24,562 nt of DNA, from positions 1 through 24,562 of IMG/VR virus record IMGVR_UViG_3300025630_000054, one strand, 5' to 3'. A program made the translations under genes and the position numbers. The DNA is from a virus (Duplodnaviria > Caudoviricetes). The notes below the pieces were generated by a model, which was not told where the DNA came from, searched no databases, and saw nothing but the letters and a program-made list of their open reading frames with translations. Positions 6,199 to 10,562 of the stretch are shown one piece after another (position 1 is the first letter of the stretch; every line of letters begins with the position of its first letter).

Positions 6199-6531
6199 CT
6201 AGAACGCAAACTCTTCCTGCGTGCGCAGCCGGTACAGCTGCTGGCCCTCGATGAACGACGTCTTCACGATTGTGCGCCGCTCCCGCATGGTCTTCAGCCC
6301 GATGTCGATATGCACGGCGTCCTGCTCGATCATGCTGCACAAGTCGCCCACCGACAGCTCGCCATGCCTGCTCAGGCAGCGCTTGATCTCCTTGCGCAGC
6401 TTCTCAAGCGGCCACGGCTTGTGGGCATACGCGTGCATGTCATCGCGGCCAATGAGCCTGCGCTTCATGCGCGCGTTCTCGATGATCGCCAACTCCTTCC
6501 AACGCTCCAGCGGTGTCATGTTTTCCGTCAC
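6199..6531 (-). CDS. putative winged-helix DNA-binding protein (~110 aa)
   Basis: GTGA-coupled start; the C-terminal GELSVGDLCSMIEQDAVHIDIGLKTMRERRTIVK resembles a wHTH. Confidence 0.6.
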   Translation of the reverse strand: MTENMTPLERWKELAIIENARMKRRLIGRDDMHAYAHKPWPLEKLRKEIKRCLSRHGELSVGDLCSMIEQDAVHIDIGLKTMRERRTIVKTSFIEGQQLYRLRTQEEFAF

Positions 6532-6758
6532 AGCCGCTTCTCCAGCATCTCGCAGAGCGCCATGATCTCCTCGGCGCGCTGCTTGATCGTCAGGCGCTCT
6601 GGGCCACGCCCCGCGTCCATACGCATGATGTCTGCCTTGCGCCGGATCGACATGACCAGCATCTGCGGCGTTGGCTGCGTCGGCGTGCTGCTGTCCTCGT
6701 CGATATACGCGCCCACGCTGGCGCTGTTTTCCAGTTTTGATAAATCCCATTTAGCCAT
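6528..6758 (-). CDS. hypothetical protein (76 aa, MAKWDL)
   Basis: AGGAG SD 7 nt upstream; overlaps its neighbours. Confidence 0.65.
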   Translation of the reverse strand: MAKWDLSKLENSASVGAYIDEDSSTPTQPTPQMLVMSIRRKADIMRMDAGRGPERLTIKQRAEEIMALCEMLEKRL

Positions 6759-6951
6759 TTTCATTCTCCTGTGTTGGCCGTGGCTGTGGTCTGACGTCGG
6801 GCCACGGGCGGCGGTAGTCTGCCTCGCCGCCCATCTCGACGCATTGCGGCTCAAAGATCCGCGCTAAGTCGTAGTGTTTCGCAAACGCCTTGCACTCGTC
6901 TACGGATGAAAAGACGGCGAATGCCATGAAGACTGGTTCTGCTAGGGTCAT
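6751..6951 (-). CDS. hypothetical protein (66 aa, MTLAEP)
   Basis: TGATG coupling to the upstream small ORF. Confidence 0.55.
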   Translation of the reverse strand: MTLAEPVFMAFAVFSSVDECKAFAKHYDLARIFEPQCVEMGGEADYRRPWPDVRPQPRPTQENENG

Positions 6952-7043
6952 CACATCCACCCCATGCTGACGGCGCCGATCCAGCCCAGCACCGACGCGG
7001 CAATCGCTGCGGCGATGATGATGTCTTGCGTCCACTTAGTCAT
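6951..7043 (-). CDS. small single-pass membrane peptide (30 aa; absent from the ORF track)
   Basis: MTKWTQDIIIAAAIAASVLGWIGAVSMGWM; ATGA overlap with the Tas-like stop and TGATG overlap with the next start. Confidence 0.6.
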   Translation of the reverse strand: MTKWTQDIIIAAAIAASVLGWIGAVSMGWM

Positions 7044-7744
7044 GCTGCTTTCCATTCTACAAATAAATCACGCACCAGCTTCTTTGTCATGTATCTCAAT
7101 GCACGATTGTGCGCGTGGCCATCGCTATCTACACGCTCGCGCTCAAGCGTTTTGCGCGTGTCATATATCCTGCGATACGGGCCAGCGTTTTCTTCTTTTC
7201 CTTGGCTCTTGAGCAGGCTGTCGCCGATCGTCCAGAATACCGAATGACGTGACGGGCTATATCCATGCGCCAATGCCATCTCCGCATTGCTGCATTTGCG
7301 CTGCCTCTGGCCATCTATCACGGCAAGCCCAGCGCGCTTATATATGCCGTCAAGCTCCTTTTCGTATTCCATAAAGTCGCCTACCTCGCCAACAATGCCC
7401 GCCAAGCCCAGATGGCCAAAGCCTTTCACCTTATCGACAAACGTTGATACTGGCAGCTCCTTTGCCAGCCCCACAAGCCACTTCTCAAACTCGGCACGGC
7501 TTTCTAAGAGCGGCTGCCTTGCCTCAAATAGTGGCTTTGTGGCGGCGTATTCATCCATTGTGCCTTCGCCCCTCTTCAGTTGGGCGAATAGCTTATTGGC
7601 TTCCTTGATGTCGCCGTCACGAAAGCTGCGGCAGATTGCTTTAATCTGCAACACCAGCTTTGCTTCAGCGCGAACCATGTTCTGCCTATTGCGCCAAGTC
7701 AGATATATCTTGGCAATGGTTGGGTCTTCGTAACGTTTATCCAT
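7040..7744 (-). CDS. tasA: IS110/Nop-domain RNA-binding protein without nuclease domain (TasA-like, 234 aa)
   Basis: Likely start ATG 7744 with AAGGAG SD. The N-terminal coiled coil (WRNRQNMVRAEAKLVLQIK) and VKGFGHLGLAGIVGEVGDF...IYKRAGL...YRRIYD...HAHNRALRYMTKKLVRDL match the IS110 C-terminal/Nop fold. No RuvC or HNH domain and no SG catalytic loop. Adjacent to a dual-spacer array. Confidence 0.8.
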   Translation of the reverse strand: MDKRYEDPTIAKIYLTWRNRQNMVRAEAKLVLQIKAICRSFRDGDIKEANKLFAQLKRGEGTMDEYAATKPLFEARQPLLESRAEFEKWLVGLAKELPVSTFVDKVKGFGHLGLAGIVGEVGDFMEYEKELDGIYKRAGLAVIDGQRQRKCSNAEMALAHGYSPSRHSVFWTIGDSLLKSQGKEENAGPYRRIYDTRKTLERERVDSDGHAHNRALRYMTKKLVRDLFVEWKAA

Positions 7745-7766
7745 AATGGATCTCCTTGTTTTATGC

Positions 7767-8197
7767 GAGGCGGAGGCAAAATGACTTTTCTGCGTAGCTT
7801 GAGTGGCCTCTGGTTGTTGGTGCGCCAGTTCTATGGCATCTCTGCGGGTTCTGATCGGCACCAAATAAAGTGGGAGCGCGGGCTTCTTGGCATTTCTGCG
7901 TAGAAAATTTGGCTCCCTGTTGTAAGGCGGGGGTGCATGATCGGTGGCATTTCTGCATGCTTTAGATGACCCCCTGTTGAATGGTTGGGAAGGGTGACGG
8001 CTAATCGGCATTGCTGCATGGTCAGTATGACCCTTCCCATTGGCGCGCTCAGTATTCGGCATAATGCGATGATCGAGTGGCACCAAAATAAGGTGGGGGC
8101 GTGGATTGCATGGCATTGCTGCGAAAACCCAATGACCCCCTGTTGTAAGGCGGGGGCGTCGCATCGTTGGCATTTCTGCGTTGGTTGACCGACCCCC
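7767..8197 (-). ncRNA. TIGR-like stem-loop guide-RNA array, 8 units each with two 9-nt spacers
   Basis: Minus-strand unit: stem-YCR-N9-YG-CAGAAATG(variants)-YCR-N9-CR-stem. All 16 spacers are exactly 9 nt and different. Outer stems differ between units but stay self-complementary. The inner hairpin is mostly GCA-GNRA-TGC. Confidence 0.88.
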
Positions 8198-8206
8198 TGT
8201 TAAACA

Positions 8207-8737
8207 TTATTCTACCAAAGCCTGCTCATACTCAGCTTTGACTTCGCTGATATTCCAAACATCTCTGACGACTTTATCATCAGTGACGCGGGCCTTGATG
8301 GCAGAATAGAAGCTGCGCTGCCCCTCATGGTGCTTGCTGCGGGATGTCTCGTGCATAATCGCCTGCTCAAGATCCTCGCTTGTTGCATCGCCCAAGCAGA
8401 TGCCGGTATTGGGCAATAGCCAACGCTCAAACATATCCTTTGCATATGCGGGTGCCATGTTTTTCAGTGACACGGCTGGCGTTGATGTCTCGCCCTTGCT
8501 CAGCACAGTTTGATGCGCTGCACGCTTAAGTCGCGCGCGGTAGCCTCTGGGCTGCGCAACAACATCCAAATATGCAATGCGCTCCAAGTGGCGGCGTGTA
8601 GCCTCTTCGCGCAAAACATCGTCTTGCTGAAGCATAACCAGATATTTCTCCGATGCTTCCTTCGCGCTAGCAGATCCCTCCCAAGCCTTTTCTACGGCCT
8701 CGGACACAATCGAAATAATATTTTCTTGCTTAGTCAT
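8207..8737 (-). CDS. uncharacterised protein upstream of the array (176 aa), candidate Tas partner
   Basis: TGATG-coupled ATG at 8737; stop lies 9 nt before the first array unit; no family recognised. Confidence 0.75.
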   Translation of the reverse strand: MTKQENIISIVSEAVEKAWEGSASAKEASEKYLVMLQQDDVLREEATRRHLERIAYLDVVAQPRGYRARLKRAAHQTVLSKGETSTPAVSLKNMAPAYAKDMFERWLLPNTGICLGDATSEDLEQAIMHETSRSKHHEGQRSFYSAIKARVTDDKVVRDVWNISEVKAEYEQALVE

Positions 8738-8886
8738 CACTCTTCCTCTTCTTCATTGCGCCAATTGAACTCGTCTTCGTCTTGGCATTCTGGGCAGCGC
8801 ACTATTGTCCACGCGTCGCTGTCCGGCGTGTTGACGAAACGCGGCAACTCGATGAAGCCGGTTCCGTCGCAAGTCGTGCAGATCAT
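8737..8886 (-). CDS. small zinc-finger protein (49 aa)
   Basis: MICTTCDGTG...RCPEC (DnaJ-like CxxCxGxG pattern), acidic tail; ATGA-coupled start. Confidence 0.7.
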   Translation of the reverse strand: MICTTCDGTGFIELPRFVNTPDSDAWTIVRCPECQDEDEFNWRNEEEEE

Positions 8887-9425
8887 TTGTACACATCCGC
8901 GTTGATGCTCCACAGCACCAAGGTCGCGCGCTGCTGGCCTGCACGCTGGTTTACATGCGCTTTGCATATCTCGCCGCGTGCGTGCATGTTTTCGAGATGC
9001 TGTGATAGCTTGCGCGTCTCAACGCCAACGACCTCAGCGATGTCTGCCGTTTCGCAGTAGGTCGCCGCGTCGCTCCGCAGGAACGCAATGACCTCGCGCT
9101 GCACGGCAGGCCAATTAATCGGCTCAGGCTTCTCGGTGGGCGTTTGCACGGCCTCTGCTGGCGCGTCAGTCGCCAAGCCCAGCACGTCACGCGCTGCGCG
9201 TCGCTCCTGCACATATGCGGCGACCCACGGCGTGCGCTCGCGCTGCTCTTCCACGGCGTTCTGCACGATGATGCCGACGCAGATGTCGTCGAGGTTTGCG
9301 TGCGCCTGCTGGAGCAGACGCGGCGATATGTGGACGCTCTCGCCGTTGTCGGTGCGGACGCCAAAGCCTGTGCCGCTGTCGGTGATGTGCGTGATTAAAA
9401 ATTCATGTGTGTGCGTAAGGTTCAT
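8883..9425 (-). CDS. putative nucleic-acid-binding protein (cold-shock/OB-like N-terminus plus wHTH-like C-terminus)
   Basis: GTGFGVRTDNGESVHIS resembles CSD RNP motifs; ETADIAEVVGVETRKLSQHLENMHARGEI resembles a wHTH; GGAG SD. Confidence 0.65.
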   Translation of the reverse strand: MNLTHTHEFLITHITDSGTGFGVRTDNGESVHISPRLLQQAHANLDDICVGIIVQNAVEEQRERTPWVAAYVQERRAARDVLGLATDAPAEAVQTPTEKPEPINWPAVQREVIAFLRSDAATYCETADIAEVVGVETRKLSQHLENMHARGEICKAHVNQRAGQQRATLVLWSINADVYK

Positions 9426-9504
9426 TATGGTTTCTCCGTTTCAGTTTCGTGGCCGGTTTGGCGCACGGCAAGGCAGCGCCGCGCGGGCGCTGCTAAGCGA
9501 TGCG

Positions 9505-10181: not shown

Positions 10182-10562
10182 ATGCAGTATGTTGCGCGCG
10201 TGGCCAACAGCATCAACGTCGGACGTGCAGGCGAGTTTCTCGTTGCAGCCGAGCTTGAGCAGCGCGGGATACGCTGCCATCGGGTAGACATGCAGGACGA
10301 TGACCTATGGGTGAAGTCGGCCAGCGGTGAGCTGTTGACGATGCAAGTGAAGGCGACCATCGAGCCGCGCGCCGATCGCAGGCGCAAACCGTGCTACATG
10401 TTCACACGCGCAAATGGCGATGCGCAAATATTTGCGTATGTGGCTCTGGATATACGATTGTTTATACTGCGCGACGCGCCGAGCGGGAAGACGGTACGCA
10501 TAAAGCCCGCCGATTTTACGCGGCAGGCTATGGATGACAGCATTAAGGCGATGCTAGGTTAG
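10182..10562 (+). CDS. PD-(D/E)XK-superfamily endonuclease-like protein
   Basis: GRAGEFLVAAEL...DDLWV...MQVKAT motif; the only plausible plus-strand gene; the start may be GTG 10200. Confidence 0.7.
   Translation: MQYVARVANSINVGRAGEFLVAAELEQRGIRCHRVDMQDDDLWVKSASGELLTMQVKATIEPRADRRRKPCYMFTRANGDAQIFAYVALDIRLFILRDAPSGKTVRIKPADFTRQAMDDSIKAMLG

Follow-up and report, generated by a model that had tools for sequence, protein, structure and literature searches.

The stretch of viral DNA analysed here (the window, 24,562 nucleotides) contains a tandem series of small hairpins between positions 7767 and 8197. The locus raises the question of what kind of array this is, on which strand it is read, and which sequences the short variable segments inside its hairpins address.

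Anatomy of the array and its reading strand

A strict pattern parses exactly eight units from the minus strand of 7767-8197 and none from the plus strand, while a looser pattern returns the same eight units and two scattered plus-strand matches (562 and 10714). Each unit has the layout stem / YCR, 9 nt, YR / loop of 7-8 nt / YCR, 9 nt, YR / stem, and in all eight of them two 9-nt spacers, A and B, are placed between YCR and YR. The units stand in tandem, with variable palindromic stems where edge repeats would stand. The outer stems include three of the G5/C5 type, one GGGAG, two TTGGTG (one with a G-U pair), one stem of 9 bp and one GAGG. The closing pair is U-G in units 1 and 2, U-A in units 4 and 5, and C-G in units 3, 6, 7 and 8. 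The loop is of the GNRA type in six units, a triloop in unit 3 and degenerate in unit 8. An array of eight structured units with these stems, closing pairs and loops had been proposed in a preliminary description, and the parse recovers it at the same positions.

All units are read on the minus strand. Unit 1 (8152-8197) has spacer A at 8189-8181 and spacer B at 8167-8159, and it is followed by unit 2 (8095-8140; A 8132-8124, B 8110-8102), the triloop unit 3 (8040-8086; A 8077-8069, B 8056-8048) and unit 4 with the 9-bp stem (7986-8039; A 8027-8019, B 8005-7997). Unit 5 (7929-7974; A 7966-7958, B 7944-7936), unit 6 (7872-7917; A 7909-7901, B 7887-7879), unit 7 (7817-7864; A 7855-7847, B 7833-7825) and the degenerate-loop unit 8 (7767-7810; A 7803-7795, B 7781-7773) complete the array. 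Segments 7863-7981 and 8086-8204 form a 119-nt duplication with an identity of 73%, and for this reason the eight units are not eight independent samples. The trinucleotide CUU occurs 1-3 bases after the stem in four of the eight units (7929-7925, 8095-8090, 8152-8147 and 7872-7868), and it resembles a processing motif described in the available text of Xu et al. (10.64898/2026.09.09.750476).

The differing stems were also said to pair without exception. Pairing was scored over 18 units, the eight of the window and ten selected in four loci that are more distant; of 162 cells, 97.5% are paired and 29 are changed on both sides, a test that is partly circular since the ten additional units had passed a stem-requiring filter. 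None of 500 shuffles reaches the observed pairing, and slid controls are paired at 32-50%. These values agree with the earlier statement.

The reading strand is fixed as the minus strand by the asymmetry of wobble pairs and by the orientation of the genes on either side. A count over 159 units from 21 related loci, which are kin and not independent, gives U-G in 25 cases versus C-A in one for the outer closing pair, and G-U in 23 cases versus A-C in none for the inner pair. Folding energy does not fix the strand. The whole-array energy is -167 for the plus strand and -133 for the minus strand; per unit, the plus strand is lower in seven of eight cases and the minus strand has the better z-score in six of eight. 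The minus-strand assignment of the preliminary description stands on wobble pairs and gene direction, and not on folding energy.

The same description had each unit display two 9-nt guides in a pseudo-symmetric loop similar to box C/D or bridge RNAs. This is the arrangement of the stem-loop tigRNA as described in the available text of Faure et al. (PMC12045711). The proposal has its limits: for naked RNA, minimum-energy minus-strand structures pair part of the spacers in all eight units, so an open loop would need protein. The YCR and YR flanks are the protein-binding boxes C and D and not stem ends alone. A scan of the window against Rfam gave no match.

The TasA protein and the cassette in the carrier phage

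The open reading frame of tasA (7040-7744, minus strand, 234 amino acid residues) starts 23 nt downstream of the array and is preceded by the sequence AAGGAG at 7757-7752. Its product consists of a coiled coil and a Nop C-terminal domain. The sole sequence match in the PDB is 9MTY (TaTasR, E 2e-11, residues 96-227), and the Pfam scan gave no match for this protein. The structural model (pLDDT 96) has a long coiled coil, the helix of which begins at residue 8, followed by the Nop C-terminal helices; it contains no strand of at least three residues, and it ends with helix 208-233, without the C-terminal Y/H processing loop. The top ten Foldseek matches of this model are TasR and TasH, followed by IS110 and Nop-family chains. 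As modelled, the protein is without a nuclease domain, that is, a TasA rather than a TasR or TasH. The PHROGs label of the protein is transposase (phrog_4285). Relatives of TasA in 16 genome loci are 27-57% identical and name no host. A TasA-like gene (36%) in a Zhengella genome (L519:2056-3768), is located among phage recombination genes with repeat-looking DNA upstream, and is likely to mark another TIGR prophage.

The array and tasA together are almost certainly a member of the stem-loop TIGR-TasA family. The preliminary description neither named this family nor connected the array with the Nop-domain gene that follows it. The family was published in 2025, and the array as such is one of its ordinary members. 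An entirely different reading takes the array as coding DNA that adds an N-terminal extension, for a protein of 377 residues, and the hairpins as incidental; the tasA frame is in fact open from 8173 through the array in the window. However, this open frame is not conserved, with 1-154 codons upstream of the tasA ATG in 20 related loci (52 codons in ten of them), and the coding reading was rejected on this ground. A ribosome-binding site also precedes the ATG at 7744, and the closest protein cluster (135 members) has a length of 234 and not 377 residues, which leaves a coding extension extremely improbable.

The window encodes an SU10-type portal and capsid, a primase-helicase and a resolvase, a gene set from which the carrier is probably a podophage. 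A 41-kb record, G006, includes a stretch identical to the window. This record also contains a second copy, about 85% identical, of the genes at the right end of the window (L291:1-1707, L292), possibly two strains joined in assembly.

The gene upstream of the array, orfU (8207-8737, minus strand), encodes 176 residues predicted to be helical. It is found in this position in every related locus that reaches that far, including the clade with 81-84% TasA identity, in which orfU is 48-56% identical. No Pfam or PHROGs family was found for it, ParB included, and all 17 profile matches are without annotation. A single-sequence model has a pLDDT of 49, and an Atlas match of 0.89 leads to an unnamed viral cluster.

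Together, orfU, the array and tasA make up an accessory cassette of 1,694 bp, which is bounded on either side by a copy of a 9-bp direct repeat, both given here on the minus strand. The right copy (8729-8737) coincides with the start codon of orfU, and the left copy (7035-7043), which overlaps the stop codon of tasA, with that of the phage gene that comes next. In 62 kin contigs fetched by a neighbouring gene, this site is empty in 33, contains the cassette in 18 and other inserts in eight, and is unreadable in three. One sequencing-run contig joins across the cassette. Because other inserts use the same slot, a recombination exchange at the gene boundary is likelier than self-mobility of the cassette.

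The inserts in the eight contigs are a low-GC gene of 382 residues, three small genes, or four genes that end in an endonuclease-family gene (L028:1108-2256, L034:10693-11271 and L040:8969-10410; the window slot is at 8737). A second variable slot lies just downstream (window 6528-6544; L003:6459-7739, L017:3815-4810), and in some kin it is occupied by what is presumably, by its motif, a cytosine DNA methyltransferase gene. About half of the kin (L001, L002, L005-L008, L013-L016) have the block 6200-9440 of the window in inverted orientation with respect to the structural genes, and several of these have a resolvase-exonuclease allele of about 71%. At the edge of this block, between the lysis and early modules, there is a lone plus-strand gene (10182-10562) with a weak match to phrog_24524.

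Guide turnover and the search for targets

TasA is carried at 81-100% identity by 22 loci. The kin arrays have 6-11 units each and together 159 units with 96 distinct guide pairs, or 98 when later loci are included. Diversity in the last three slots of 17 loci is 0.35-0.52 for the spacers, compared with 0.036 for tasA, 0.025-0.06 for the boxes and loop and 0-0.076 for the stems and linkers. The stems and linkers are slot-specific and nearly fixed, and the guides turn over fast inside fixed scaffolds. There are seventeen guide pairs with one half in common and the other half different, and locus L004 fuses two slots at the loop. These two features point to a shuffling of alleles, apparently by recombination at conserved loops and stems. 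Among L010 and L012-L016, one 9-mer is used in both positions, as spacer A in four of these loci and as spacer B in the remaining two. The guide of unit 3 is common to three further loci; this unit (8040-8086) is unchanged there in spite of its shortened loop and partly self-complementary spacers. The array of L021 has an odd loop similar to that of unit 3.

Two guides of the window lead to the same group of siphophages. Four kin alleles of the unit 1 guide all read TMRLVD on one strand, and a degenerate scan built on this guide returned 14 loci. Three of these are one siphophage tail gene in the predicted frame, each with another synonymous TMRLVD allele, and the other 11 lie in unrelated contigs and were treated as chance. 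Unit 1 matches this tail gene (phrog_2048) in 17 of 18 bp at L449:3437-3454, and the one change is silent. Unit 5 has an exact 17-bp site at L473:5022-5038, made of nine bases of B and eight of A, which covers the start codon of a long tail-fibre gene in the same siphophage group; for the seven other window guides, by our own arithmetic, such a match has a chance of about 1e-4. Homologous sites in L447 and L388 have two mismatches.

No credible target was found in 521 loci for units 2, 3, 4, 6, 7 and 8. For unit 4, a scan of viral contigs gave nine scattered matches in unrelated contigs, which were rejected. Unit 8 has one match of 17/18 in a kin phage (L103:2706), at the level expected by chance. 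With respect to the carrier itself, the best matches of the window guides in the complete identical record G006 have 4-5 mismatches (for unit 3, apart from its own array), and among 11 carriers no guide matches its own record with fewer than three.

The wider test used target-group loci fetched by the protein of the unit 1 tail gene, and guides outside the two families that had selected the group. The ten closest loci, with a tail protein at least 76% identical, amount to 83 kb of fragments in which mostly the structural region is sampled. Six of 53 held-out families match within two mismatches, compared with a shuffle mean of 0.82 (six is reached in 0 of 300 shuffles) and one family in the wrong order. 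A relaxed 17-bp rule, in which the middle base of the site may match either spacer, was adopted after matches of the unit 5 type had appeared; under it, 10 of 53 families match at the sequence level when A is followed by the reverse complement of B, and two in the other order (shuffle mean 1.52; 0 of 200 reach ten). Unit 5 of the window is one of these ten. Controls with real phage DNA expect 1.1-2.1 of 53 families and not 0.4, versus the six seen in the peptide-identity test, values that are upper bounds because some of the control pools held members of the target group. The margin is accordingly smaller than the shuffles suggest, and modest.

When the group is extended to 13 loci by three BLAST-similar contigs, all of them with earlier guide matches, 21 of 98 guides match within two mismatches. 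Five of these are exact, and the seven single mismatches are all silent. In 12 loci, two of which were included for earlier matches, silent near matches are 23 of 70 versus 0 of 174 for shuffles, 14 of the 23 being from a selecting family. The sites are found in terminase, head-closure, tail, tail-fibre and lysis-region genes. Sites of 18 bp fit unit 1 and some other guides, and sites of 17 bp fit unit 5 and others. Complementarity between the last bases of A and B is seen in 50 of 98 guides (25 expected); counted by family, it is seen in 27 of 55 (14 expected, p 1.5e-4).

The commonest kin guide, scanned with its middle left free, gave 120 loci, 78 of them with the predicted 17-bp form. A cluster of varied phages accounts for 24 of these loci, with the site over the start of a tail-module gene. 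A 42-contig cluster of isolate prophages matched by this guide was treated as chance, being one allele in one group of lower GC. Roseobacter phage CRP-6 has one match with two mismatches, in a repeat-rich tail-fibre gene.

No excess was found in more distant siphophages (47 loci; 4 versus 6.5 expected) or in a wider tail-module set without four siphophage-like contigs (97 loci; 11 versus 14.7). An all-synonymous frame across 16 multi-allele families was also not significant (6 versus 6.9 simulated). Many phages share tail-fibre modules, and for this reason the true targets may be wider than the group sampled.

The matches in the siphophage group make it quite probable that the guides aim at rival phages. 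About 40 of 55 families are without a target in the phage DNA sampled, and this could mean that most guides aim at host genes, of defence or metabolism, or at kin phages, with the siphophage matches a minority use. In kin DNA, 24 of 53 families match within two mismatches, compared with a shuffle mean of 16.9 (0 of 60 shuffles as high), and 2 of 95 guides within one mismatch, compared with control means of 0.35-0.9; the kin match of unit 8 belongs here as well. However, the wrong-order control, with 22 families, equals the excess in kin, and there is no exact match in 2.3 million distinct 18-mers of kin DNA. In addition, the target group was sampled as 83 kb of fragments, which limits what can be mapped. 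We consider a main use against host or kin unlikely, although some of the guides may target kin.

Proposed mechanism and comparison with known systems

The capsid of the carrier has its closest cultured relative in an Octadecabacter phage (62%). The target tail gene is closest to Roseobacter phages (60%) and the target capsid to Rhizobium and Labrenzia phages (47-54%). One lysis-region gene is common to carrier and target with 61% identity. From these relationships, the two phages are likely to share an alphaproteobacterial host of the Roseobacter type. DNA records with the locus are labelled as freshwater and mollusc metagenomes, and a search of genome contigs found no prophage relative of the target tail gene. 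A promoter and terminator scan gave nothing above shuffles. Five metatranscriptome runs yielded low-depth contigs over parts of the cassette, and these contigs show neither transcription nor its strand or ends.

The anatomy of the array, the fold of TasA, the cassette and its empty site, the turnover of guides and the target matches above several controls allow us to propose that the array guides a TasA dimer onto genes of unrelated siphophages and represses them during co-infection of a shared host. We give this chain as a whole a probability of about 0.7. The array would be transcribed together with tasA, the transcript would be cut into single hairpin RNAs, and the TasA dimer would bind boxes C and D. 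Spacers A and B would pair with opposite DNA strands, on sites of 18 bp (unit 1) or of 17 bp, in which the middle base pair may be read by one or both spacers (unit 5). The structural genes of the rival siphophage would then be repressed without cutting in a co-infected cell.

MbTasA represses a reporter in E. coli reversibly (10.64898/2026.09.09.750476), and the available texts describe no other activity of TasA. It could also be imagined that TasA bound on rival DNA bends or opens it, and so blocks replication or packaging, or else aids recombination and the capture of tail modules. A block of replication and an aid to recombination are both raised for TasA in the available text of Faure et al. 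(PMC12045711). Four of the sites cover gene starts, which are module borders, and the cassette lies near genes for a RuvC-like resolvase and an exonuclease. However, there are also sites internal to terminase, head-closure and siphophage tail genes, for which a podophage would have little use, and with repression the only reported activity, this alternative appears rather improbable.

An action on RNA has also to be weighed, in which the particle works like box C/D particles with one spacer covering the translation start of a late mRNA. The start codon is covered in three of ten held-out families, compared with 1.8% of positions, an excess that may be detection bias, as gene starts are perhaps better conserved and hence easier to detect. 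However, the two halves match on opposite strands, and one mRNA cannot offer both; the sense and antisense roles also switch between A and B. TasR is inactive on RNA substrates in the available text of Faure et al. (PMC12045711). Action on RNA is therefore most unlikely, and repression at the level of DNA is the preferred reading.

A further extension is speculative and, in our judgment, has only a small chance of being correct. In it, orfU would be the missing partner for acquisition or processing, and the array would be rewritten in place from rival siphophage DNA with its scaffolds kept. The sites would be of 17 or 18 bp with starts of late genes favored, and the module of orfU, array and TasA would be an adaptive weapon of phage against phage.

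Natural TIGR targets and the origin of spacers are called open questions in the available texts (PMC12045711; 10.64898/2026.09.09.750476), and our literature search found no paper in which TIGR guides are assigned a natural target in a phage. Natural targets of this recently discovered system are rarely seen, and the locus gives such a view, with a near-identical phage population, 98 distinct guides, an empty site and a mapped group of rival phages. The question of TasA targets can now be taken to a bench test with native guide-target pairs, among which an exact 17-bp site would be missed by the published 18-bp rule. If the proposal is true, nuclease-free TIGR systems serve competition between unrelated groups of phages.

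The closest known systems are the stem-loop TIGR-TasA examples PlTasA, BlTasA and MbTasA (PMC12045711; 10.64898/2026.09.09.750476; 10.64898/2026.08.11.744272, in their available texts). The present array shares with them the tandem hairpins, two 9-nt spacers, box C of the CCA type and box D (CG/UG), variable palindromic stems, the short conserved loop, the adjacent Nop-only protein and the viral location. CCA with CG or TG is among the stem-loop motifs given in the available text of Xu et al., who catalogued 2,559 stem-loop arrays (10.64898/2026.09.09.750476); the locus may be one of these arrays, or may be listed in Table S1 of PMC12045711. It differs from the published TasA systems in the second gene, orfU, in the known empty site of the cassette, and in having targets mapped within a single siphophage group, for two guides of the window and for a dozen or so families from kin. 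In the available text of Faure et al., spacer overlap was judged unlikely, only gaps were tested, and the published rule is 18 bp (PMC12045711), whereas many of the sites here are of 17 bp.

The dual-repeat TIGR systems TasR and TasH (PDB 9MTY, 9W04) have in common with this locus the Nop fold and the box C/D core with two spacers, but here there is no RuvC or HNH domain and no C-terminal loop past the last helix, and stems replace the edge repeats. The IS110 bridge-RNA recombinases (IS621, ISCro4) and box C/D snoRNPs share the Nop domain and two guides between C and D boxes, and their Nop chains appear at Foldseek ranks 12-28 with E-values of 0.03-0.4. TasA is without the DEDD RuvC-like recombinase domain of IS110, and an IS110 bridge-RNA element was rejected for this reason; the array also has eight single-loop units instead of one two-loop RNA. 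Guides of the box C/D snoRNA type have RUGAUGA and CUGA boxes with a K-turn. Such a guide was rejected here, since the boxes are YCR and YR and there is no Rfam match, and no fibrillarin or L7Ae partner was found among the genes scanned. A CRISPR mini-array was likewise rejected, because the spacers are of 9 nt, the stems differ and there are no identical direct repeats. Viral mini-CRISPR arrays rely on host Cas.

According to the available texts on VIPR (10.64898/2026.04.26.720920) and on viral mini-CRISPR arrays (PMC6858448), phage-borne guides against other viruses are shared with both, although the protein and the guide code are different here and the mini-arrays rely on CRISPR repeats (PMC6858448). 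Repression of transcription, which is a feature of VIPR (10.64898/2026.04.26.720920), is what we propose for the present TasA.
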